Below, piece by piece: positions 16,683-61,706 of a stretch of 64,000 nucleotides of DNA (position 1 is its first letter; every line of letters begins with the position of its first letter). Location of the stretch: the NCBI GenBank assembly GCA_016187745.1, contig JACPJC010000006.1, positions 104,005 through 168,004 of the forward strand. The letters are read 5' to 3'. The position numbers and the translations under genes are program-made. The notes under the pieces were generated by a model that made no database searches, was not told the origin of the DNA, and saw only the letters and a list, made by a program, of their open reading frames with translations. The DNA is from Candidatus Iainarchaeum sp. (GTDB taxonomy: Archaea; Iainarchaeota; Iainarchaeia; Iainarchaeales; JAXPJC01).

Positions 16683-16806
16683 TGTTGGAGGGAGTTTATA
16701 AGATTTTTGAAGGAGAGGAAGGTATCGGAAACCTAAGGTTTCTGATTAAGGGAGGTATCGGAACCGCAGGTTCTGATTGTTGGAGGGAGTTTATAAGATT
16801 TTTGAA
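16683..16806 (+). repeat. 29-bp perfect direct repeats enclosing two related triloop hairpins (hairpin element, site A)
   Basis: TGTTGGAGGGAGTTTATAAGATTTTTGAA at 16683-16711 and 16778-16806. Hairpins ATCGGAAACC-TAA-GGTTTCTGAT (16724-16746) and ATCGGAACC-GCA-GGTTCTGAT (16757-16777). Confidence 0.93.
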
Positions 16807-16813
16807 TTTATAT

Positions 16814-17515
16814 ATGAGCGGAATGTGCGCGATAAAGGCAATCATATTTGACATGACCGACACAATCCTTGAGTTTGATTTTCGGAGGATGCGGGAGGAA
16901 TTCGGGAAAATAATAAAGGGGCATGAGTGCACTAGGCATCTGGCAATTGGGCAGTTCATGGACGCCTATAAAGAGGCATATGACTCATACCAGAGGGGGG
17001 AAATTCAGAACGATAATGCTTTCTGGGAAAAGATGTTTGGACTGCTTAAAGTTAATCCGAAAAAAGGGGAATTCAGGGGCATAATGAGAAGGCATCTGGC
17101 TTCGAGAAGAAAATTCGTAAAATTGCACAGGCACGCGGGGCATATTTTCGGAAGGCTGAAGAAAAAATACAGGCTTGCAATCCTATCGAATGCAGTGAGG
17201 AATTGGGCGGATTATGACTGGAAGTTCCTGAAATTCAATCCGAAAAAATATTTTGATGTGCAGCTCTACTCTCAGGACACACGCCTGCTTAAGCCGGAGA
17301 GAAAGGCTTTTGAACTTGCTCTGCGCAAATTAAATGTAAGCGCAAAGGAGGCGCTTATGGTCGGGGACAACGAAAGCCAGGATATTCTGGGAGGCAATAG
17401 CGCGGGACTTGTTACAGTGTTTCTTGCAAACAAGTACAGGCTTTCCGGGGCGGTAAAGCCGAGGTTTGTGGTCAATTCATTGGAAGAAATTGAAAAAATT
17501 GCGGGGGAAATGTAA
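16814..17515 (+). CDS. HAD-superfamily hydrolase
   Basis: IIFDMTDTI, ILSN, KP, MVGDNESQDILG. Start placed at ATG 16814; the longer ORF-track N-terminus runs through the repeat element. Confidence 0.88.
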   Translation: MSGMCAIKAIIFDMTDTILEFDFRRMREEFGKIIKGHECTRHLAIGQFMDAYKEAYDSYQRGEIQNDNAFWEKMFGLLKVNPKKGEFRGIMRRHLASRRKFVKLHRHAGHIFGRLKKKYRLAILSNAVRNWADYDWKFLKFNPKKYFDVQLYSQDTRLLKPERKAFELALRKLNVSAKEALMVGDNESQDILGGNSAGLVTVFLANKYRLSGAVKPRFVVNSLEEIEKIAGEM

Positions 17516-18845: not shown

Positions 18846-21800
18846 ATGCCCAGGACTGAAAAAGGACAGGCCGCGCTTGAGTATCTGATGACCTATTCCT
18901 GGGCGCTTGTTGCAATTGCAATAGTCATTGGAGTGCTTATTTTCATGGGAATTTTGAAGGCGCCTTCTGCTGGAACTTGCACAGGGCTTGAGAAGCTTGC
19001 ATATGAGGACCATACCATAGATTCCAACGGGAATTTCATTCTCTACTTAAAAAACGGGGCAGGAATGCAGATTGCCATCAACAGCATATCGCCGGGTGAA
19101 GATTTCAGCGGAAATTGCAGCGCAAGTTCCGCAATAATAAATGCAACAAAGGATTTCAATATTGTGTGTATCAATACAGGAATAAGCGCAGGCCAAACTT
19201 ATAATGGAAAAATAACAATTGAGTATATGCGCAGGAATGCAAAGCATACCGAAAGCGCGGCATGCTCAGGAACAGCGCCCTTGAGCGGGATATTTTTGGT
19301 TGCCCCTGCCCCGCAAATCATTGAGGGCTTTTTCAACGGTTCAGGGAACAATGTTGACCTGAACAACCCTGACGAGATGACGCTTGGGGGCGGAGGGGGT
19401 AGTTATGCATTTTTTGGCAGTTATACTTCGGATGTTTTTGATGCAAACTCAACAATGGACTGGACCGCAAGCATCTCATGGGATGAGAACGCTCCGGCAG
19501 GAACTGACATTAATTTACAAACAAGAACTTCTGACAATAATGTTGCATTTAGCGCATGGAGCGGCTATTACACAAATCCTTCAGGAGAAGCAATTACCTC
19601 CCCTAATGGGCGCTTCATACAATATAAAGCGAATTTGAGCACTACAAACCCGGCGCTTACGCCGAGATTATTGGAAGTGAGAATGCATGGGAACCCTCTT
19701 GCGCAGAGCTGCGGCAATCTGAAAAGGGAGGGAAGCGAACAATGCGATACAAATGACCTGGCAGGATCAAATTGTGTTTTATTGGGCTATTCTTCAGGCG
19801 CCCTTGCGTGCAAGGCAGACTGCACATTTGATACGAATGGATGCGTTGGCGCAACTACTACAATGCTTTGCCCTGGCAGCAAAACCTGGACTTCCCAATC
19901 AGATTGGCAGTCCGGGGCGCTTGCAAATATTGATGCTACTTCAAGCCCTGGCAGCATAAAGCTTTCGCAGCCATCAACCTCAGGAACATGGAACATTGTT
20001 GTTGATTCAAATGCCGCGCCAACAGACTGGAATGCGATAAGCTGGAGCGAGGACTTGAATTATGGGGGAGAGCTTGCAGGAGATGCTAACACAAAATTGC
20101 TTTTGCATTTGAATGAGGTCTCGGGTTTAACTGCTGCAGATGCAAGCGGGAATGGGAACAATGGAACACTAACAAACGGAGCAACATGGACTTCTTCAGG
20201 GAAGTTTGGGAATGCATTGGGCTTTGATGGAATAAATGACTACATTGATGTTTCCAATGAGTCTCTTTTTGATTTTGAAAGAACTTCTCCATTTACACTA
20301 AGTGCATGGGTTAAGTGGGCTTCAGGCACTACACAAACCTTATTATCCAAACAAACAAGTGCTGGCAACGCACCAGGATGGTTATTGATTGTTAATGCAA
20401 ATGGAACTCTGGCAATGTGGCTCGTAAATGATGCAGGTGCGGGTTGGAATCTAATACATGTCGATTCGGTGAGTTCTATAGGGCTGGGGACATGGAATCA
20501 TGTAGTAATGACTTATGATGGTTCGAGTACTGCGGCCGGAGTAAAGTTGTTTATAAATGGCAATCAAAGCGGGACAACAATAGTAACAAATACGCTTTCA
20601 GCTTCTATTCTCAACAATGTTGATGTGTGGATAGGAAATAGGCAATTTGCTGACATACCATTCAATGGTACAATTGATGAAGCTGCTATATGGAATAGAG
20701 CACTGGGTGCAGGTGAAATCCTTGAGCACTACAAGCGCGGCGCGCTGAATCTTCGATTTAGGACAAGAAGCGCACCAACGCAAGGCACCTTGAGTTCTGC
20801 TTCATGGGGTGGCTATTACACAGAATCCCCTTCAGCAATAGCTTCGCCGAACAACAAGTGGATTGAGGTTCAAGCATTGCTTGAAAATTCAGATGCAAAC
20901 TATACAAATTACACGCCAGTGCTGAATGATGTAAGCATCAGTTGTGCTGGCGCTCAAGGCAATCAGGCTCCTTTTGCAGGGCTTGGCGCTTCAGCATATT
21001 CGGCAAATGCTGGAAGCTATATTGCTTTTTATGGGAATACCTCCTATGACCCTGACGGGAATATTGTGAATTATGCGTGGAATTTCGGGGACGGGAATGC
21101 AGTTGCAAGCCCGGCAAACTATCCGCTGGGCGCAAAGACATTATTGCGTTTTGATGAGGGAATTGATTCGGCAGCAGGTGATGCGAGCGGAAACAACAAT
21201 GGTGGAACAATAAGCGGGGCTGCTTGGACCTCTTCAGGAAAGTTCGGGAATGCGCTCGCTTTTGACGGGGTTGATGATTATGTTAATTTGCCGCAAAAAA
21301 TTACAGATGCCGAAGGAACCATATCGGCATGGATTAAAACCGGCGGCGATGTTAGCAGCGCGCAAAGGATATATTCCCAATCCACAGGGGGCGCAAGCAG
21401 CAACAGGGTAGCAGTTACGATTTTGTCTGGGGCTTTCCGTTTTGACGCAGGATTTGCGCCAGGAGGAGTTCAGTTGGATATTGGCAATGTCCAGCCAAAT
21501 ACCTGGTATCATATAGTGTGGACAAGTGATGGCTCCACGATTAAAGGATATGTAAATGGGGCAAACCAGGCTTTAACTGTTACGGGGGGGAGCAACAGCG
21601 GCCAATGGTTCAGCGGCATAACCTCAAATTATGCCAGGATCGGCAATATGCGCTATGATGATATCTCAGGAAACATCCAATATTTCAACGGCACAATCGA
21701 TGAAGTTGCAATTTATAATCGCGCATTGGGCGCAGGCGAAATACTTGCCTTATACCAGGGCGGCCCTGCAGTAGTGTATCATAAGTACAATCTCGCAGGA

Positions 21801-24293
21801 GATTATAATGTTGTACTTACAGTAACTGATAATAATGGCGCAACTGATGCAAACACCGTGAGCGTAAGCATCACTTCAGGCCCGATAAGCTTCTGCCCGG
21901 GGACAAAAAGCTGGACAACGCAGGCTGATTTCAATTCAGGAAGCGATGTAAATGCTGACACTTATTCAGATCCCGGAAGCATAATTTTAACAAAAAGCGG
22001 GGAAATAGCGCCTGATGCAAACACAAAGCTGCTTATGCATTTTAATGCAAATCCGCAAACGCATTTGGGAACGGAAATGGATTCTTCAGGAAACGGAAAT
22101 AATGGAACGGTTTATACAAATGAGGGCGCAACAAACAAGGCAGTTGCAGGAAAATTCGGAAGCGCTTTGGGCTTTGATGGCATTGATGACCGCGTATCCG
22201 TCCCGGACAGCGATTACTGGAATCTGGGTTTATATTTCACTATTGGCATGTGGGTTAAATTCCAGAGCGGAACAATAGACAATGAGCATTATTTGCTGGG
22301 CTATAATTACGGGAGCAATAACAGGAATTTCTGGGTGGCATACCAGGGGCAGCTTTCGCCGGATCAGCTGCATTTTAATTTTGCCACTGACGGCTCAGGC
22401 GGCCACTTCGGGGGCATGAGCGTTGCATGGACGCCTAATGCAGGGCAGTGGTATAATATTGCAATTGTGAGAAATAGTGCTGATTTGAAGATGTTTATAG
22501 ATGGCATGCAGATCGGCTCCACTTACAATATCGGCGCAACGAGCATGTGGGCCGGCTCAACAGCAGGCATAGAAATCGGTTCGGGGCACAATTCCCGCCA
22601 TAGCGGCGAAATGGATGAAGTTGCAGTCTGGAACCGCGCGCTTTCTCCAAGCGAAGTCCTTGCGCTTTATCAGAGCGGCTCGGCATACCGCCCTTCAGGC
22701 ACATGGAACGGAGTATTTGATTCAAATTCAATTGCAAGCGGCTGGAACACAATAAATTGGGGCGAGGATTTGAATTACGGCGCTGAACTTGCAGGGGATT
22801 CCAATACAAAACTGCTTTTGCATCTGAATGAGGGTTCTGGAACAACTGCAAATGATTCAAGCGGCAATGGGAACAATGGGGCATTGTTTAACGGCCCTAT
22901 CTGGACTTCTTCAGGAAAGTTCAGGAATGCGCTGCAGTTTGATGGAACTGATGATTATGTGAAATTCTCGGCAGCAAATATGCCTACAGGGGAAAGAACA
23001 GTTGAATTGTGGTTCTATAACACAGACACAACAGCGGTGGGGGCAAGGCAGATATTCGGATATGGGGGGAACAGCAACAGCCCCGCATATTCTTCATTTT
23101 TGATTTACTCCTCCGCAGATAAGAAGGGAATTACTGCCCATATGCATTATCCCGGGGGCGGGATCCTGAATTATGCAGGAACTTCGCCGATGACCAATGC
23201 CTGGTATTACTTGGTGCTCACAACTGACGTGAGCGGAAGCAGGCTTTACATAAATGGAAGGCTGGTTGATTACAATGCAGTAACCCCTTCAACATATGTT
23301 TCGGGCAAAGATGGATTTGTGGGTGCAATGCCTTCAGGCAGCGGCACTGGAACCTATGTTGACCCGAATTATCCCTATTGGAAGGGGAATATAGATGAAG
23401 TTGCAGTTTACAACGCAGCGCTGGACGCAAATAAGATACTTGAGCATTACAGGAAGGGCGCCGCAAATATAAGATTGAGGACAAGAACTGCCGCATCGCA
23501 GCTGGCATTGAGCAGCGCGGAATGGAGCAATGAGAATGAGATTGATGCGAATTCTGACATCAATGGATTGTGGCACTTCAATGAAGGAAGCGGCAGCATT
23601 GCAAGCGACTCAAGCGGAAATGGGAATAACGGAACATTGATGAATGGAGTGGCATGGGCTTCTTCTGGAAAGTTTAAGAATGCGCTGCAGTTTGATGGGG
23701 TTAATGATTATGTTAACATAATTAAATCTGATGAGTTTCATTTAGGAGCGGGTAGTTTTGCTGTTACAGCATGGGTTAACTTTGCGGGGTTAGCCGGAAA
23801 TCAGAATATTCTTGCGTTTTATACCATTGCCAATCAGGCTTTGCAATTTGCTTGGAGTACAAACGTTTTAACTGTTTGGGGCGAAACAAGCACTGTTTTA
23901 AGCACATCAGGATTTTCCCCAACTCTTAACAGATGGTATCACGTTGCATTTGTAAGAAACGGGAATGCCTGGAATATTTATGTTGATGGCACGTCATATG
24001 CCAGTGCAACTGATGCGAGAACTTTAAATTATCCGAAGGATAATATTGGGATAGGCGTTCTGCCTACGTCCTTGCAATATTTCAACGGCAAGATAGATGA
24101 ACTTGCAATTTGGAACAGGGGATTAAGCGCAGGCGAAGTGCTCGGGCTTTACAAGAGAGGCAAATATTACACGGCAGGCCCGAGCGCAATAACAAGCGAT
24201 GCCAACAGGTTCATTGAGGTGCAGGCGCTCCTGGAAACTGAAAATTCCTCTTACACGCCGGTGCTGCAGGATTTGAACATAAGCTGCTCTTAG
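18846..24293 (+). CDS. Giant pilin-like surface protein: class III signal peptide, Cys-rich repeat, PKD domain, five LamG domains
   Basis: KG|QAALEYL plus hydrophobic helix; five 'FDGxxDxV...DExAxxNxAL' LamG units; WNFGDG...HKY...LTVTD PKD motif. Confidence 0.9.
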   Translation: MPRTEKGQAALEYLMTYSWALVAIAIVIGVLIFMGILKAPSAGTCTGLEKLAYEDHTIDSNGNFILYLKNGAGMQIAINSISPGEDFSGNCSASSAIINATKDFNIVCINTGISAGQTYNGKITIEYMRRNAKHTESAACSGTAPLSGIFLVAPAPQIIEGFFNGSGNNVDLNNPDEMTLGGGGGSYAFFGSYTSDVFDANSTMDWTASISWDENAPAGTDINLQTRTSDNNVAFSAWSGYYTNPSGEAITSPNGRFIQYKANLSTTNPALTPRLLEVRMHGNPLAQSCGNLKREGSEQCDTNDLAGSNCVLLGYSSGALACKADCTFDTNGCVGATTTMLCPGSKTWTSQSDWQSGALANIDATSSPGSIKLSQPSTSGTWNIVVDSNAAPTDWNAISWSEDLNYGGELAGDANTKLLLHLNEVSGLTAADASGNGNNGTLTNGATWTSSGKFGNALGFDGINDYIDVSNESLFDFERTSPFTLSAWVKWASGTTQTLLSKQTSAGNAPGWLLIVNANGTLAMWLVNDAGAGWNLIHVDSVSSIGLGTWNHVVMTYDGSSTAAGVKLFINGNQSGTTIVTNTLSASILNNVDVWIGNRQFADIPFNGTIDEAAIWNRALGAGEILEHYKRGALNLRFRTRSAPTQGTLSSASWGGYYTESPSAIASPNNKWIEVQALLENSDANYTNYTPVLNDVSISCAGAQGNQAPFAGLGASAYSANAGSYIAFYGNTSYDPDGNIVNYAWNFGDGNAVASPANYPLGAKTLLRFDEGIDSAAGDASGNNNGGTISGAAWTSSGKFGNALAFDGVDDYVNLPQKITDAEGTISAWIKTGGDVSSAQRIYSQSTGGASSNRVAVTILSGAFRFDAGFAPGGVQLDIGNVQPNTWYHIVWTSDGSTIKGYVNGANQALTVTGGSNSGQWFSGITSNYARIGNMRYDDISGNIQYFNGTIDEVAIYNRALGAGEILALYQGGPAVVYHKYNLAGDYNVVLTVTDNNGATDANTVSVSITSGPISFCPGTKSWTTQADFNSGSDVNADTYSDPGSIILTKSGEIAPDANTKLLMHFNANPQTHLGTEMDSSGNGNNGTVYTNEGATNKAVAGKFGSALGFDGIDDRVSVPDSDYWNLGLYFTIGMWVKFQSGTIDNEHYLLGYNYGSNNRNFWVAYQGQLSPDQLHFNFATDGSGGHFGGMSVAWTPNAGQWYNIAIVRNSADLKMFIDGMQIGSTYNIGATSMWAGSTAGIEIGSGHNSRHSGEMDEVAVWNRALSPSEVLALYQSGSAYRPSGTWNGVFDSNSIASGWNTINWGEDLNYGAELAGDSNTKLLLHLNEGSGTTANDSSGNGNNGALFNGPIWTSSGKFRNALQFDGTDDYVKFSAANMPTGERTVELWFYNTDTTAVGARQIFGYGGNSNSPAYSSFLIYSSADKKGITAHMHYPGGGILNYAGTSPMTNAWYYLVLTTDVSGSRLYINGRLVDYNAVTPSTYVSGKDGFVGAMPSGSGTGTYVDPNYPYWKGNIDEVAVYNAALDANKILEHYRKGAANIRLRTRTAASQLALSSAEWSNENEIDANSDINGLWHFNEGSGSIASDSSGNGNNGTLMNGVAWASSGKFKNALQFDGVNDYVNIIKSDEFHLGAGSFAVTAWVNFAGLAGNQNILAFYTIANQALQFAWSTNVLTVWGETSTVLSTSGFSPTLNRWYHVAFVRNGNAWNIYVDGTSYASATDARTLNYPKDNIGIGVLPTSLQYFNGKIDELAIWNRGLSAGEVLGLYKRGKYYTAGPSAITSDANRFIEVQALLETENSSYTPVLQDLNISCS

Positions 24294-25720: not shown

Positions 25721-26545
25721 TCATTTCTGAATTGCCTTGTTTGCTATAATAAGCAGGGCATTTGAAAGCTTGCTGAATTCTTCCTTTAATATCAGGTTCG
25801 TGCTGTCAAGCTTGCCTGAAACATTATCCATCTTATTTGAGAGATCTTCCTTTAATATTCTGTTTGTGTCATCCAGTTTGCCTGAAACGCTGTCCATCTT
25901 ATTTGAGAGATCTTCCTTTAATATTCTGTTTGTGTCATCCAGTTTGCCTGAAACATCATCCATCTTATTTGACAAATCTTCCCTTAATATGCGGTTTGTG
26001 CTGTCGAGCTTGCCTGAAACGCTGTCCATTTTCTTCGACAGGTCTTCCCTTAATATCTGGTTTGTGCCATCCAGCTTGCTTGAGACATTGTCCATCTTCT
26101 TTGCAAGCTTTCCTGAAAAACCGTCCATCTTATTTGACAGGCTGCCATATTTTACATCCAGCTTGCCGAAGTTCCCGTTTGTTTCTTTTCTGAAGCTATG
26201 CATCTCATCATACATTTTGTGCATATACAATGCCGCCTCATCAGCCCTCTCAGCCATTTCCCGGGTTGGCTTCCCCCTATTAATTGTAAATCTTTTAAAT
26301 GTGATTTTTGTTGCAATGCTCCTCTGTTTGATATTTTCTACATTAATTGGCCAGTTTCTGATTTTGATTTTATCAATAAATTTCTTGATTCTTGCTTTAT
26401 CCCCCTGGACAACTATTTTTACGCTTTCATCAGGAAGATTCTCCGCATAGCCTTTTATGCCCAGCTCAAAGGCAGCCTGGCTCACAATGTTCCTATAGCC
26501 GACTCTCTGGACATTGCCTGTTACAATCAATTCTAGAGCGCCCAT
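25721..26545 (-). CDS. Acylphosphatase-domain protein with 22-aa repeat helical tail
   Basis: GNVQRVGYR and GYAENLPD (catalytic Arg/Asn present), followed by ~180 aa of helical repeats. Confidence 0.85.
   Translation of the reverse strand: MGALELIVTGNVQRVGYRNIVSQAAFELGIKGYAENLPDESVKIVVQGDKARIKKFIDKIKIRNWPINVENIKQRSIATKITFKRFTINRGKPTREMAERADEAALYMHKMYDEMHSFRKETNGNFGKLDVKYGSLSNKMDGFSGKLAKKMDNVSSKLDGTNQILREDLSKKMDSVSGKLDSTNRILREDLSNKMDDVSGKLDDTNRILKEDLSNKMDSVSGKLDDTNRILKEDLSNKMDNVSGKLDSTNLILKEEFSKLSNALLIIANKAIQK
25775..26104 (-). repeat. Coding tandem repeat, 66-bp unit x5
   Basis: For example GAGAGATCTTCCTTTAATATTCTGTTTGTGTCATCCAGTTTGCCTGAAAC at 25839 and 25905. Encodes KMDxVSGKLDxTNxILxEDLSx; boundaries approximate. 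Confidence 0.9.
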
Positions 26546-55654: not shown

Positions 55655-56135
55655 ATTCGGGAATTCCAGAGGGCAGGTGGTTTCATATGACCTGATGATT
55701 GCAATATTCATATTCCTGCTTGTTTTTGCATTTGCGCTGAGCGTTTGGCAGAATTCCATTGGCGCAATTGCAGGGGAGAAAATCCTTTATGAAATGAAGA
55801 ATTCCGCAGTGCAGATTTCAAACCAGCTTGTAATGACCCCGGGAGTTCCGAGCAACTGGCATCTTAGCGGGGATGCGAACCTTTATGGCTTCGCATTGTC
55901 AAGGCGCGCGCTTTCGCTGCAGAAGCTAAATGCATTCAAGGCGCTGGATTACAATTCAGCAAAGGGCAGAATGGGAATTGCCGATTATGACTTCTACATA
56001 AAGATTGAGCAGGACCTGAACAAGGCCTATGAGGCAGGAAGCATAAAAAGCGGCGCAGAGATTGCAATAAATTCATCAAGGGTTGTGAGCTACAATGGAA
56101 AAAATGCGATATTTTATTTCACGCTCTACAAATAA
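55647..56135 (+). CDS. Minor pilin-like protein
   Basis: RG|QVVSYD plus hydrophobic helix; TPGVPSNW. Confidence 0.8.
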   Translation: MPEFGNSRGQVVSYDLMIAIFIFLLVFAFALSVWQNSIGAIAGEKILYEMKNSAVQISNQLVMTPGVPSNWHLSGDANLYGFALSRRALSLQKLNAFKALDYNSAKGRMGIADYDFYIKIEQDLNKAYEAGSIKSGAEIAINSSRVVSYNGKNAIFYFTLYK

Positions 56136-56139
56136 CGGG

Positions 56140-56571
56140 ATGCGGAAGGGGCACATGCTGACCCTCGATGCCGCATTCTCAATAGTCATACTTATGGCCC
56201 TTGTGGGGATCATGGGCTATGTGCCATTGATGGGGAGCAACGACCCCTACTCCGGGCTCAATATGCAGAGGAGCATGAATGATGCGCTTGACCTGCTTGA
56301 TGCGCAGGGGGTCCTGCAGCAGTTTGATTCGAATAAAATTTCCACGGAGATAGATTCAGCAATGCCCGTGCAGTATTCGTGGAGGATGCGCATTGAGAAA
56401 TTCTCCTATGCGAATGACTCATTTACGGAAAGGGATGAGATAAATTTCGGCGCGGGCGATGCAAACCTCTCGGGAAAGGATTTGATGCACGGGAGAAGGC
56501 TTTTCCTTACATTTAAGGACAATGAAATTGAGTATTTCTATGATGCGCAGTACTGGGTATGGGTGAAATGA
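56140..56571 (+). CDS. Minor pilin-like protein
   Basis: KG|HMLTLDA plus hydrophobic helix. Confidence 0.8.
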   Translation: MRKGHMLTLDAAFSIVILMALVGIMGYVPLMGSNDPYSGLNMQRSMNDALDLLDAQGVLQQFDSNKISTEIDSAMPVQYSWRMRIEKFSYANDSFTERDEINFGAGDANLSGKDLMHGRRLFLTFKDNEIEYFYDAQYWVWVK

Positions 56572-56705
56572 TGGGGCAGAAGGAAGGGGTCAGGATTAAC
56601 CTCAAAACTAAGGAAGGTATCGGAAACGTAGTTTCTGATGGAAAACTGGTGGAAACCTTGGTTTCCCGCGGTTTGGTGCGGGTGAAATAATGGGGGGCAG
56701 GGGAA
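56561..56705 (+). repeat. Hairpin element site B, bracketed by an imperfect duplication of the stop/start junction
   Basis: TAAGGAAGGTATCGGAAAC-GTA-GTTTCTGAT (56609-56639) and GGAAACC-TT-GGTTTCC (56651-56666). Flanks GGGTGAAATGATGGGGCAG (56561) and GGGTGAAATAATGGGGGGCAG (56680). Confidence 0.85.
56571..56690 (+). CDS. 39-aa mini-ORF spanning the hairpin element
   Basis: MGQKEGVRINLKTKEGIGNVVSDGKLVETLVSRGLVRVK*. TGATG overlap upstream and TAATG overlap downstream. Confidence 0.5.
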   Translation: MGQKEGVRINLKTKEGIGNVVSDGKLVETLVSRGLVRVK

Positions 56706-57538
56706 TTATATTAACGCTGACAATACTGCTGTTCAGCCTTGCGGTTATAGGGCTGAGCTCGCAATTGAGGGAAAACACAAGGCTGCTTGAGCAGAATGCG
56801 CAGTTTGTTTCCGCAATAGACAGGGTCGCATACAAATTTGAGAATGTGCAGGACAACATATATGACATAATGCTCAACGTAGGGAACATGGATTTTGATT
56901 CAAATGCCGAAGCGATATGGTTTTATGAGAGGCTGCCCGAGAAAACAAAGAAGGACACTTACCAGATTGACCTGGATGCGTACAGGGAATTTGTCTTCCT
57001 GCATTCTGATGCGCTTGATGTGAACATAAATTCAGCAACTGTGGACGTGAGGGATTTGCTCGTTTCCCCCTATGACATAAACTACACGCACTCGAAGGAC
57101 AAGGGGAAATACTACAATGAAATTTCATATTCCCCTGAAAGCCTTAATTTTGAGGGCTATTTCATTGACATTACCCTGCAGAACCAGGATTACAACGGGA
57201 TAATAAAAAACATGAAAACGTCTCCAACCAACAACATAAATCTTGATTTGGTAATAAGGAACAGCACAAAAATTACTGAGAATGAGCTGCACTACACTGA
57301 TGTGGACCCTACAAAAACCAGCACAATAACAGTAAAGACCTCCGGCGTGGCGCAGAAGGACATTGAGATAACAATAACTCCCACAGGAGTCCTTACAATA
57401 ACCAACAACAATCAGGTCCCAATAGACATAAATTCGGGAATAAATTTCGGGGCGCTTGCGACTGAAATGCCAATAGTGGAGCTTCCTGACAATATGGTTG
57501 TGGTGGGGAGCGCGGACTATAATGTAGAAAAGAGGTAG
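56690..57538 (+). CDS. Minor pilin-like protein
   Basis: RG|IILTL plus hydrophobic helix; last of the pilin run. Confidence 0.72.
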   Translation: MGGRGIILTLTILLFSLAVIGLSSQLRENTRLLEQNAQFVSAIDRVAYKFENVQDNIYDIMLNVGNMDFDSNAEAIWFYERLPEKTKKDTYQIDLDAYREFVFLHSDALDVNINSATVDVRDLLVSPYDINYTHSKDKGKYYNEISYSPESLNFEGYFIDITLQNQDYNGIIKNMKTSPTNNINLDLVIRNSTKITENELHYTDVDPTKTSTITVKTSGVAQKDIEITITPTGVLTITNNNQVPIDINSGINFGALATEMPIVELPDNMVVVGSADYNVEKR

Positions 57539-59224: not shown

Positions 59225-59253
59225 AAGGGAATGACTTAATATTGGGGGATACA

Positions 59254-60816
59254 ATGCCGGGAAAATTCGCATCAAAGAAGCAGAAGGAAAAGCCTGAAAG
59301 GGCAACCGACGGCTTCAGGCGCGTTCTTGAGAGCTACAAGGTTGAAGCGGACAATGTGAAAGTTGAAGTGGACATAGCGGATGACAAGGATTCGTTTGTG
59401 AAGATGTATCTCCTTAACATTCCCGAGTATGGCCCCGGGACGCGCGCGCTGCTTGACAGCCTGAAGGGGAGCATAATCTCCGAGGCAACCATTGAGGCGG
59501 AGAAAATGTTTGATGTGAAGTTTGTTTCCGCGCTTAAGGAAAGGTTCAGCAGGCGCGCTGAATCAATACTGCAGAAGGAGCTCCCCAACATAACCCCCGA
59601 AATAAAAAACACGCTCATAGGGATGCTGCTCCAGGAGATGCTGGGGCTGGGGAGAATTGAGTTCCTTCTCAACGATGCGAATTTGGAGGAAATCGTAATA
59701 AATTCCTCAACAGAGCCCATGTGGGTATACCACAGGAAATACGGCTGGCTCAAAACTAACATCAACATAGACAAGGAAAACGACATCCAGAATTATGCGA
59801 GCATAATCGCAAGAAGGGTTGGAAAGCAGATTACAATCCTTGATCCATTGCTTGATGCGCATCTGATAACAGGGGACAGGGCAAATGCAACGCTCTTCCC
59901 GATATCCGGGAAGGGAAACACGCTTACAATAAGGCGCTTCAGGAGGGAGCCCTGGACAGTTACGGATTTCATAGAAAATGGGACTGCAACAGCGGAGATA
60001 ATGGCGCTTGTATGGACCGCAATGGAGTATGAGCTTAACATGATTGTAAGCGGAGGGACTGCTTCAGGAAAAACCTCATTCCTAAATGTGTGCATGCCTT
60101 TCATACAGCCGAACCACAGGATAATAAGTATCGAGGACACTAGGGAATTAGTTATGCCGGAATTCCTGCACTGGGTCCCATTAACCACAAGGGAGCCTAA
60201 TCCGGAAGGAAAGGGCGGCGTTGCAATGCTTGACCTTCTTGTAAATTCCCTGAGGATGCGCCCGGACAGGATAATTGTCGGGGAGGTAAGAAGGCAGAGG
60301 GAAGCCGAGGTAATGTTCGAGGGAATGCACACAGGGCACAGCGTTTATACTACTGTTCATGCGGACACTGCGGAAGAAACAATACACAGGCTAACAAACC
60401 CCCCGATTTCAATTCCCCCATCAATGCTAACGACAGTGCATTTGAATGTTGTAATGTTCAGGAACAGGAGGCTGGGGGTAAGGCGCATCCTGCAAGTGGC
60501 TGAATATGTTCCCGAAAAGCGCACCGAGGACATTGAAATAGTGAAGCCCAACATACTCTACCGCTGGAAGGCCGCGAATGACATAATTTCCAAGCACTCG
60601 GAGAGCATAAGGCTTTATGACGAGCTTGGCCTCTACACGGGAATGAGCCAGGATGAAATCAACCGCGAGCTGAAGGTGAAGCAGGCGATACTGCGCTGGA
60701 TGGTTGAAAAGAAAATAAATGCGATAGATGATGTGGGGAAGCTTATGGCGCTTTATTACAAGAACCGCGATGAAGTGATAGGCATGGTAAAGGAAAACAA
60801 GAGGCCGGAGCTGTAA
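59254..60816 (+). CDS. Type IV pilus/Tad assembly ATPase (VirB11/CpaF family)
   Basis: GGTASGKT, SIEDTRE, LRMRPDRIIVGEVR, TGH...TVHA. Confidence 0.95.
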   Translation: MPGKFASKKQKEKPERATDGFRRVLESYKVEADNVKVEVDIADDKDSFVKMYLLNIPEYGPGTRALLDSLKGSIISEATIEAEKMFDVKFVSALKERFSRRAESILQKELPNITPEIKNTLIGMLLQEMLGLGRIEFLLNDANLEEIVINSSTEPMWVYHRKYGWLKTNINIDKENDIQNYASIIARRVGKQITILDPLLDAHLITGDRANATLFPISGKGNTLTIRRFRREPWTVTDFIENGTATAEIMALVWTAMEYELNMIVSGGTASGKTSFLNVCMPFIQPNHRIISIEDTRELVMPEFLHWVPLTTREPNPEGKGGVAMLDLLVNSLRMRPDRIIVGEVRRQREAEVMFEGMHTGHSVYTTVHADTAEETIHRLTNPPISIPPSMLTTVHLNVVMFRNRRLGVRRILQVAEYVPEKRTEDIEIVKPNILYRWKAANDIISKHSESIRLYDELGLYTGMSQDEINRELKVKQAILRWMVEKKINAIDDVGKLMALYYKNRDEVIGMVKENKRPEL

Positions 60817-60818
60817 AA

Positions 60819-61706
60819 ATGGCTATGAGGATGGTTCCGTTCAGCCCTGTTCCTGTTGGCGCCCTGAAAAAAATCTCAAGGCCGCTTATGGGCATTGGGG
60901 CGGTATTTGCAAGGGCCTTCCCCTACCTGGAACTGGAGCTTGAGCAGGCCGAAGCCGGAATAGACATTGACGAGTATGGCGCGATAATGATTTTCCTCTT
61001 CTCATTTTATTTCCTGTTCATGGCATTCATCATCTTTGCAGTAGGCACGAAAATGGGGGCGCAGAATGTTCCCATACTTTCGATTACTGCAGGAATGCTG
61101 ATCGCATTTCTTGTGATGATGCAGCTTTCCATCTATCCCAAAATGCTAGTGAGAAAGAAAGTAAGGGACATCGAGAGGAATCTGGTATTTGCGCTGCGCA
61201 CTGTGCTTATTGAAATAAAGTCCGGGGTTTCGCTGTTTGATGCGCTTGTTATGATTGCAAACGGCGAGTATGGGGCATTAAGCTCTGAATTCAAGAGGGC
61301 GGTTGATGAAATTAACACAGGGACAAAAGAGGAGGACGCTTTGCAAAAGCTGGCAATGAACAATCCCTCGCTTTTTTTCAGGCGCTCCCTGTGGCAGATA
61401 GTGAATGGGATGAAGGCCGGGGTTGATGTGAGCAGGGTATTGGCTGAGCTTGTTGCAACAATGACAAAGGAGCAGCGCATACAAATCAACCGCTATGGCT
61501 CGCAGCTCAGGCTCTTTTCCCTGATGTACATGATGCTTGGAGTAATAGTGCCGTCTTTGGGACTGACTTTCCTGATAATACTCTCAAGCTTCCCGCAGAT
61601 TCAGATTACTGAAATTCTCTTCTGGATACTGCTTGTGGTAATTATTTTCGGGCAGCTCATGTATGTGGGGCTTATAAAATCAAGGAGGCCCAATCTCCTG
61701 GGATGA
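60819..61706 (+). CDS. Type IV pilus/Tad membrane platform protein (T2SSF, TadB/C-like)
   Basis: KSGVSLFDAL, YGALSSEF; TM pattern; follows the ATPase. Confidence 0.9.
   Translation: MAMRMVPFSPVPVGALKKISRPLMGIGAVFARAFPYLELELEQAEAGIDIDEYGAIMIFLFSFYFLFMAFIIFAVGTKMGAQNVPILSITAGMLIAFLVMMQLSIYPKMLVRKKVRDIERNLVFALRTVLIEIKSGVSLFDALVMIANGEYGALSSEFKRAVDEINTGTKEEDALQKLAMNNPSLFFRRSLWQIVNGMKAGVDVSRVLAELVATMTKEQRIQINRYGSQLRLFSLMYMMLGVIVPSLGLTFLIILSSFPQIQITEILFWILLVVIIFGQLMYVGLIKSRRPNLLG

Follow-up and report, generated by a model that had tools for sequence, protein, structure and literature searches.

A composite hairpin element, probably an insertion, at the stop/start overlap of two pilin-like genes in Candidatus Iainarchaeum sp.

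In a type IV pilus-like gene cluster of Candidatus Iainarchaeum sp., two neighbouring pilin-like genes are held apart by 119 nt that contain hairpins and an open reading frame of 39 codons, which raises the question of whether this interval is an old spacer, a small gene or the trace of an insertion. The window analysed, i.e. the whole stretch of 64,000 nucleotides (G000:C5:104005-168004), derives from an archaeal metagenome assembly (G000; 0.96 Mb, 45% G+C, 10 contigs, 91% complete). According to our reading of the translations, several small proteins with hydrophobic pilin-like N-termini are encoded in the cluster, which also includes a weak match to DUF7287 (Pfam, below the cut-off) and the genes of a T2SSE ATPase (59242-60816) and a T2SSF membrane protein (60819-61706; both assigned by Pfam). 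Gene 1 (56095-56571, plus strand, 158 amino acids, hydrophobic pilin-like N-terminus) and gene 2 (56690-57538, plus strand, 282 amino acids, pilin-like N-terminus) matched no Pfam family in the Pfam search; the C-terminal end of gene 1 and its overlap with the next gene are conserved in relatives, and orthologues of gene 2 (31-43% identity) are present in nine further loci of the same order belonging to other families. The TGA of gene 1 overlaps an ATG at 56571 (TGATG), and the open frame claimed in the original prediction does extend from here, with 39 codons plus TAA (56571-56690, plus strand), to the ATG of gene 2 at 56690, which its TAA overlaps. The evidence presented below makes it highly probable that the 119-nt interval is the insertion of a composite mobile hairpin element, and neither an old spacer nor a gene.

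The junction is duplicated, with hairpins between the two copies, as had been predicted: A 16-nt direct repeat (56561-56576 and 56680-56695, plus strand) is identical at 15 of 16 positions with a period of 119 nt, the lone mismatch being a G versus an A at the stop codon. Judged from the sequence, the repeat may, with a 2-nt indel, extend to a common CAG and thereby comprise about 19-21 nt, the left copy possibly reaching 56579 and the right copy 56700. In a control scan with the same geometry, none of 600 random genome positions had 14 or more matches (maximum 13). Repeat 1, the left target duplication, holds the last codons and the stop TGA of gene 1 together with a copy of the Shine-Dalgarno (SD)-like GGTGA and the ATG of gene 2, and repeat 2 holds the working SD sequence of gene 2 and the TAATG stop/start overlap. 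Between them, about 100 nt contain two hairpins, of 9 bp (56619-56639) and 7 bp (56651-56666); only these individual hairpins stand out, as the fold of the entire 156-nt region is not better than that of shuffled sequence (z −0.14).

The two hairpins represent two related families of elements. In type I, an SD-like run of purines precedes a hairpin of 9 bp whose loop measures 3-5 nt. Type II begins with purines in a similar manner; its 5' stretch is conserved and single-stranded, a basal helix and an apical hairpin are formed, and the 3' end is conserved as well. In the insert, the 5' arm of a type II element harbours a nested type I unit: The type II 5' arm (56580-56609, plus strand; purine-rich start, then a conserved TCAGGA..CCT.AAACT stretch) is followed by the nested type I unit (56610-56641, plus strand; SD-like purine run, stem arms 56619-56627 and 56631-56639, loop GTA), which on our reading is bounded by two copies of a 6-nt string, and by the type II 3' part (56642-56679, plus strand) with the apical hairpin and the conserved 3' end. 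The second hairpin had originally been taken for a degenerate copy of the first unit and is actually the apical hairpin of the type II family. Likewise, the supposed common layout with a second site of the window, site A (16683-16806, plus strand), did not hold, as at site A a tandem pair of type I units (16712-16777) is enclosed by perfect direct repeats of 29 nt (16683-16711 and 16778-16806), which contain the TATA-like promoter of a HAD hydrolase gene starting at 16814. The peptide EGIGN, noted for the frames through both sites, is present in each (at 56613 and 16718) but stems from an identical 15-nt stretch with one reading frame at both sites and adds nothing further. A twin of the composite is located 10 kb away on the minus strand (C5:170518-170612; 97 nt, 95.9% identity, same ends), in a 580-nt intergenic stretch that is apparently a nest of such elements. 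The two composite copies differ by two 1-nt deletions that leave the hairpin intact and shift the frame, which argues against a coding role.

Comparison with related genomes revealed junctions that lack the hairpin interval, so that the latter is not an old conserved spacer, and the predicted insertion with junction duplication was borne out. In two JGI metagenome loci (L189 and L190; about 93% (91-94%) DNA identity and 95% protein identity to the window), the TAA of gene 1 overlaps the ATG of gene 2 without any insert. Logan contigs, as distinct from raw reads, of the runs X5 and X6 from two other studies join position 56567 to 56701 with 17 other letters between; the strain that they represent is approximately 93-95% identical and has the stop/start overlap without hairpins. 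Eight of nine orthologous loci from other families were inspected, and all eight lack the hairpin-bearing spacer: On our reading, seven have an overlap of 4-8 nt and one has a 14-nt spacer. The junction of locus L192 is an overlap, too. The source-study run X1 contains a unitig of 62 nt (depth 2, versus 7.4 for the main path) that leads from 56529 through repeat 1 directly into the sequence behind repeat 2, which weakly indicates that the same population also harbours an empty allele and is, at the same time, a weak hint at the excision via the flanking repeats that had been envisaged in the original prediction.

The occupied allele is documented by unitigs of X1, which cover 56529-56627, 56600-56649 and 56620-56709 without differences, and by contigs of a further run, X2, which cover 55842-56639 and 56620-57400. 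Both flanks are thus tied into the element, and the occupied allele is not a mis-join. An assembly artefact, i.e. a repeat collapsed or mis-joined into the operon, might be suspected from the fact that no single Logan contig spans the insert and that the contigs break within the multi-copy unit; in view of the linked flanks and of an independently occupied junction in another locus, L191, such an artefact is extremely improbable.

In L191 (79% protein and 75% DNA identity to the window), the same junction is occupied by a different composite, namely a type II element nested in another type II element with no type I unit, which is flanked by its own 17-21-nt repeat; contigs of X5 and X6 are in agreement with this. 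The window and L191 have the 119-nt period and a nearly equal left boundary of the repeat in common, which might be explained by one old insertion in the ancestor of this genome and L191, with L189, L190, X5 and X6 as precise excisions. Direct repeats of 16-21 nt can mediate precise deletion, and the minor empty unitig in the source-study run X1 is also compatible with such losses; excision would then have proceeded by recombination or slippage between the repeats, and the content would have been remodelled by nested insertions or by conversion between copies. Both the single origin and this course of excision and remodelling are regarded as unlikely: The insert of the window combines type II with type I and that of L191 type II with type II, the closest relatives (93% DNA identity) are empty and the occupied L191 is only 75% identical, and the window copy resembles its 96% identical neighbour at 10 kb distance up to the matching ends, as would be typical of a recent copy. 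Two independent hits of the same junction are therefore favoured, based on the twin nearby and the empty closest relatives.

According to this explanation of the present arrangement, a composite element of approximately 100 nt was copied into the stop/start overlap of the two pilin-like genes, and about 16-21 nt of the target, including the end of gene 1 and the SD sequence and ATG of gene 2, were duplicated. The left repeat completes gene 1 and the right repeat keeps the initiation signals of gene 2, with neither gene being damaged. The left copy of SD sequence and ATG opens the 39-codon frame through the element, which meets the duplicated stop and ends at TAATG because of the period of 119 nt (2 mod 3). 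Ribosomes translating this mini-ORF would be expected to melt both hairpins and could re-initiate at gene 2, and the mini-ORF may soften the effect of the hairpins; the insertion is probably tolerated and nearly neutral.

The original prediction had ascribed to this arrangement the preservation of translational coupling. Indeed, the frame bridges TGATG to TAATG; however, only one of the three sense frames of the composite is open, the other two being closed by stops in the type I unit, and the chance of a bridging frame, given a duplicated SD sequence and ATG, is about 1 in 9 by our own estimate. Among four insertions with an ATG in the duplication, two are bridged (39 codons at this site and 30 codons at G004 L057); in the other two (the L15 gene of this genome and G025 L053), the frame stops inside the element, 54-56 nt before the true start, so that bridging is not needed for survival. 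Gene 2 moreover keeps its own SD sequence and ATG in the right repeat. A new frame opens automatically once SD sequence and ATG are duplicated, and in our reading the mini-ORF is a by-product and not a designed coupling device. That the interval encodes a real 39-amino acid protein of the pilus system might be deduced from an open frame with SD-like sequence and ATG that is coupled at both ends; this is very improbable, given that the frame has no Pfam family, owes its existence to a non-coding repeat that is by chance open in one of three frames, is changed in the twin copy with its preserved hairpin and is missing from the empty alleles.

The motif recurs many times in the genome, as the proposal of a mobile element implied (about 24 type I and seven type II copies in 0.96 Mb). 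The 12-nt core of type I has 14 occurrences versus none for a reversed control sequence, and a loose regular expression gave 29 hits, which after removal of five reverse-strand artefacts correspond to 24 units. In keeping with a multi-copy unit, contigs are 3-6 times deeper over 56610-56663 than over the flanks. Based on crude ORF calls, at least 18 of the 24 type I units are in sense and closely precede the start of a gene or RNA, two are antisense and four unclear. The sense units are found 0-76 nt upstream of starts, among them those of the 16S rRNA (at 1 nt) and of two tRNAs (at 1 and 4 nt); the downstream genes include those of L3, L15, Rrp4, Spt4 and MCM (Pfam) and, according to our own reading, the putative genes of S17, Csl4, DnaG and PolB. 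As a side observation, this preponderance of sense units upstream of starts could mean a role and not mere tolerance. The distance between unit and start codon ranges from −2 to 76 nt, which rules out a fixed SD-hairpin-ATG module. A general tRNA leader was rejected as well, as the element lies between a TATA-like box and the tRNA in only three of the 45 tRNAs called by ARAGORN in this genome, and a hairpin-directed tRNA 5' processing that replaces RNase P was rejected because of the presence of RNase P RNA and Pop5. One possible in-frame element in a HerA-like gene is ambiguous.

The hairpins are conserved as structures. In the alignment of 51 type I copies from 10 genomes, 97.2% of the cells are paired; one pair covaries perfectly (CG 33, AU 18, unpaired 0) under a search pattern that permitted mismatches, and 50 of the 51 copies retain a G.U pair, which indicates that the type I hairpin is strand-specific. 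For type II, RNAalifold analysis of 11 copies from four genomes resulted in 14 pairs, six of them with compensatory changes; all six are located in the apical hairpin, and the flanking sequence is invariant. This pattern fits a mechanism in which a folded single strand, be it RNA or DNA, is recognised. The 5' purine run of type I matches the SD complement of the 16S rRNA 3' end, and the reverse complement of the unit reads as a hairpin followed by a pyrimidine/T run. In comparison with Rfam 15, no family reached the gathering score in the window, and the elements had no match with E up to 1 in 11 loci with copies; readings as C/D-box, K-turn, hammerhead or BHB-intron RNAs were dismissed on account of their motifs, which do not fit by eye, and the lack of an Rfam match.

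Beyond this genome, the exact type I pattern was detected in nine of the 41 genomes searched, this one included, and in eight of 39 other genera of the order (11 copies in G001 and 12 in G004), and four of 196 genomes belonging to the order had the type II pattern. When 185,579 species genomes were scanned for type I, at least 112 stretches were obtained, where about three hits are expected by chance (own estimate) and mis-binned contigs are possible. The record titles among the matches listed comprise Iainarchaeum, Diapherotrites, Woesearchaeota, Nanoarchaeota, Altiarchaeota, Bathyarchaeia, Aenigmatarchaeota, Micrarchaeota and Undinarchaeota as well as one Methanosarcinales MAG and three contigs of CPR-bacterial MAGs; a match from Poribacteria is without the 5' purine run and may be a chance hit. 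Type I is nearly identical across records titled as distant archaeal phyla. For a purely selfish repeat without its own enzyme, such near-identity is odd and points to a conserved function or partner. In other records, the unit is present in sense 0-4 nt before the 5' end of tRNA genes or antisense behind their 3' end, mostly at a distance of 1-6 nt (in L077, the unit and the called end have 3 nt in common); in relatives, it is also located inside tRNA introns and 4 nt past a 16S rRNA 3' end. The single match in a viral collection, again beside a tRNA, gave no lead to an enzyme.

From such data, the element might be conceived as a functional portable RNA module that alters the expression of gene 2, with mobility as its mere means of spread; it might act as an SD-plus-hairpin leader, as a 5' stabiliser, as a processing signal or, on the reverse strand, as a hairpin-plus-U-tract terminator. 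The near-identical sequence in records of many phyla, the covariation and the strand-specific G.U pair of the hairpin, the position of at least 18 of 24 units in sense upstream of starts including those of 16S rRNA and two tRNAs, the match of the purine run to the SD complement and the hairpin with pyrimidine/T run in the reverse complement are in favor of this possibility. Nevertheless, we consider it doubtful as the primary explanation of the interval, as both occupied and empty forms of the junction exist and close relatives are without the element, the distance to the start codon is highly variable, units of relatives are also found antisense past tRNA 3' ends, in tRNA introns and past a 16S 3' end, only three of 45 tRNA genes of this genome carry the unit, special leader processing is not needed in the presence of RNase P RNA and Pop5, and no Rfam family is matched.

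The insertion of a mobile element is, by comparison, in accordance with the target duplications that recur in the family. Flanking repeats with at least 14 matches, in the geometry of the 600-position control, were detected at four of 30 copies in this genome (29, 28, 20 and 15 matches), at 10 of 36 copies in relatives within the order (15-31 matches) and at 14 of 73 further copies in other records (15-71 matches, where counts of 28 and above include tandem-array copies of L092 and L134); in total, 28 of 139 copies are flanked by duplications of 15-71 matched bases versus 0 of 600 control sites. On our reading, the longest repeat attributable to a single event has 46 matches. The remaining 111 of 139 copies are without a recognisable flanking repeat and may be old or of other origin. 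The duplications cover an SD sequence and ATG at this site, at the L15 gene, at G004 L057 and at G025 L053, the last codons and stop at G004 L029 and L061, and a promoter at site A; the commonest target in other lineages is the 3' end of tRNA genes, from the T-loop to just beyond the T-run (L027, L050, L090, L092, L105, L125, L134, L150 and L156). As the duplications span gene starts, gene ends and tRNA 3' ends, the flanking genes survive. Inserted segments measure 38-130 nt; they terminate with the constant 3' end of the element and in some cases include additional sequence or hairpins on the 5' side. Terminal inverted repeats were absent from the three of the 28 duplication-bounded inserts that were checked (three, one and one matches of the first 14 nt with the reverse complement of the last 14 nt). 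Microhomology at the joints of element and repeat, inspected by eye, was inconsistent (0-5 nt). The families would thus be characterised by insertion with long, variable duplications and by survival mainly at gene starts, gene ends, tRNA ends and promoters.

The search for a mobilising enzyme yielded no candidate that tracks the presence of the elements across the 41 genomes. In the profile search, Y1_Tnp (PF01797) had no hit in G000 and G004 and was present in five of the eight other unit-positive and in seven of the 32 unit-negative genomes; DDE_Tnp_1, rve and the reverse transcriptase RVT_1 were found neither in G000 nor in G004, a genome with numerous copies flanked by duplications; RVT_1 occurred in only two (G001 and G012) of the eight other unit-positive genomes, and Cas1 was not found in G000. 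Y1_Tnp, DDE_Tnp_1, rve, reverse transcriptase and Cas1 were thus rejected as mobilisers, as were the IS200/IS605 (TnpA, TnpB), IS4/IS1634 and IS30/rve systems. G000 has three TnpB genes, none adjacent to the listed unit positions, and one partial tyrosine recombinase at a contig end for which no link to the elements was seen. MAGs often lose IS copies, and the absence of an enzyme from an incomplete MAG (91% complete) is not proof. Among the conceivable routes of mobility, we would rank an integrase or transposase acting in trans first, template switching or gap repair at highly transcribed gene boundaries second and an RNA intermediate third.

Several known systems resemble the elements in part. 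MITEs have been described as small, non-coding, multi-copy elements of intergenic regions that have target direct repeats, undergo nesting and can create small ORFs or fusions (PMC10969869). The present elements are similarly small (30-130 nt), non-coding, multi-copy, intergenic, nestable, flanked by target direct repeats and able to create small ORFs or fusions; unlike MITEs, they are without terminal inverted repeats, their duplications are mostly 15-46 nt and vary between copies instead of being short and fixed, and no related autonomous IS or transposase (Y1_Tnp, DDE_Tnp_1, rve) was found in G000 or G004. They resemble REP/REPIN sequences as multi-copy imperfect palindromes of small size at gene boundaries, in which the stem is conserved and the loop varies, and as in the REP/RAYT system the palindrome is kept by compensatory change; in contrast to the latter, a Y1 transposase was found neither in G000 nor in G004. 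REPs are species-specific and are not known to make a target duplication, whereas the elements described here are common to several phyla. Rickettsia palindromic elements (RPE) are likewise small palindromic repeats in a reduced genome; reading frames tolerate them internally or at the margin and continue through them in frame (PMC10969869). RPEs lie inside genes as in-frame additions, whereas the present elements are positioned at gene boundaries and rely on the long duplication.

Insertion with long target duplication has been documented for a class of restriction-modification genes, and duplications of 19-26 bp for the bacterial IS1630 (PMC2853133); those of IS1549 and IS1634 span 8-514 bp, and a mechanistic model is stated to be lacking (PMC2266710). 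The elements agree with the class of Furuta et al. 2010 in the long variable direct repeat, which is single-copy in the empty-site relative and often overlaps a gene 3' end, and in the lack of any other mobile gene in the insert. The repeat at this site (16-21 nt) is below the 30-bp cut-off of that study, while other copies have 29-46 nt; furthermore, that class comprises bacterial kilobase gene cassettes or full IS with DDE transposases, in contrast to an archaeal hairpin repeat of 30-130 nt, with an insert of approximately 100 nt that has no restriction-modification cargo (no Pfam hit). Transposition of the IS30/IS1634 type differs by its enzymes, as neither rve nor DDE_Tnp_1 was found in G000 or G004. 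Variable target duplications, a constant 3' end, occasional extra 5' sequence and the link to tRNA genes are reminiscent of SINE retroposition; however, reverse transcriptase was found neither in G000 nor in G004, its presence does not track the elements, and the duplicated tRNA ends carry the genomic T-run instead of CCA. CRISPR spacer integration and casposons differ in that Cas1 was not found in G000 and the duplication lengths vary. An earlier description of types I and II was not found in searches of the openly accessible literature.

It is conceivable, and proposed here tentatively, that types I and II constitute an undescribed pan-archaeal class of tiny structured mobile elements with expansions in DPANN, which has no recognisable transposase, generates duplications of about two helical turns (15-46 nt) and colonises the gene boundaries of compact genomes; a duplication of this length suffices to copy a stop, an SD sequence with start, a TATA box or a tRNA 3' end and would thereby allow this colonisation. 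Type I may at the same time double as a portable module, a strong SD sequence with hairpin when read one way and, read the other way, a terminator made of a hairpin and a U-run, and its constancy across phyla may be imposed by a universal partner, e.g. the 3' end of 16S rRNA or a conserved host enzyme. At the level of the pilus operon the significance is modest: A tolerated insertion accounts for the odd 119-nt spacer and for a spurious 39-amino acid ORF that annotators might call a gene. A further caution for these genomes is that such elements can give rise to ORFs, leaders and tRNA introns. If the wider proposal is true, it would add a new kind of small mobile element for archaea, where few non-autonomous elements are known, would provide a natural marker of strain-level variation in uncultured DPANN populations, and would imply that very compact genomes can accept an insertion where genes overlap, since both gene ends are restored by the long duplication.

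Besides the type I unit (a purine-rich, SD-like run followed by a 9-bp hairpin) and the related, larger type II element with its apical hairpin, a third repeat family was observed in the source genome, in which a T-rich hairpin precedes a conserved tail. Copies of this family are located on the minus strand of locus L004 (1490-1530 and 1190-1260) and in the 3' flanks of many tRNA genes of the genome: its sites lie directly past the 16S rRNA 3' end, 3' of at least ten tRNA genes and within tRNA introns, and a tRNA intron of the same-order genome G001 carries an element resembling it. Another hairpin type, with a 7-8-bp stem of variable sequence and a conserved purine-rich loop of 11-15 nt, was observed in G001 and G004 (loci L024, L025, L026, L027, L033 and L035); it is often positioned immediately 5' of type I units and travels with them in duplication-bounded inserts, i.e. 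element copies enclosed by long direct repeats of the target, such as a tRNA 3' end. Half-units consisting of the SD-like run and the left hairpin arm occur two to three in series (period of about 23 nt) upstream of a full type I unit (L032, L033, L036 and L038 of G001 and G023; L112, L116 and L149), and in L092 and L134 the type I unit together with the duplicated tRNA 3' end forms the repeat of tandem arrays.

As judged by eye, the common type I variant, when reverse-complemented, is similar to the 3' end of the 16S rRNA, comprising the 3' strand of helix 45 and the anti-SD tail (compare L032:501-540, minus strand, and L004:1530-1570). One loop variant shares an identical 10-nt run with the 16S rRNA 3' end in the same kind of comparison, and 16S-like type I copies directly follow the 16S 3' end in G001; the resemblance may be due to chance.

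Two intergenic stretches of the source genome, unusually long at about 590 nt, are crowded with nested elements. The one at C5:58947-59536 (L060) contains a type II copy 2 nt upstream of an intron-bearing tRNA (Phe according to ARAGORN); the folding of the other, at C5:170230-170815 (L001:4230-4815), gave a z of -2.4. ARAGORN also called a tRNA-Ser with an 869-nt intron at C4:9649-10603, and introns of 12-95 nt in many other tRNAs of this genome; some of the calls look doubtful. Within the window, a tandem array of 66-nt units (25779-26140) and five dispersed repeats of 87-95 nt each, 700-1700 nt apart (19980-24161), were present; the latter look like a repeated protein domain.

The long ORF of a HerA-like (DUF87) protein contains an in-frame type I unit at C4:6919-6942 (L011:1020-1043, minus strand), in an acidic N-terminal stretch ahead of the domain; alternatively, the true start of this gene is the ATG overlapping the 3' end of the unit. 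Among the eight orthologous junctions upstream of gene 2, the only one with a spacer (14 nt; L047:1330-1362, G017) exhibits a 10-nt direct repeat around it, perhaps a scar left by an earlier event.

Finally, the type I unit was present in three CPR-bacterial MAG contigs titled as Parcubacteria-group bacteria (L089, L118 and L131), in a context that the three share, 3' of a G+C-rich hairpin. Its occurrence there may reflect transfer between CPR and DPANN organisms in groundwater, or mis-binning.
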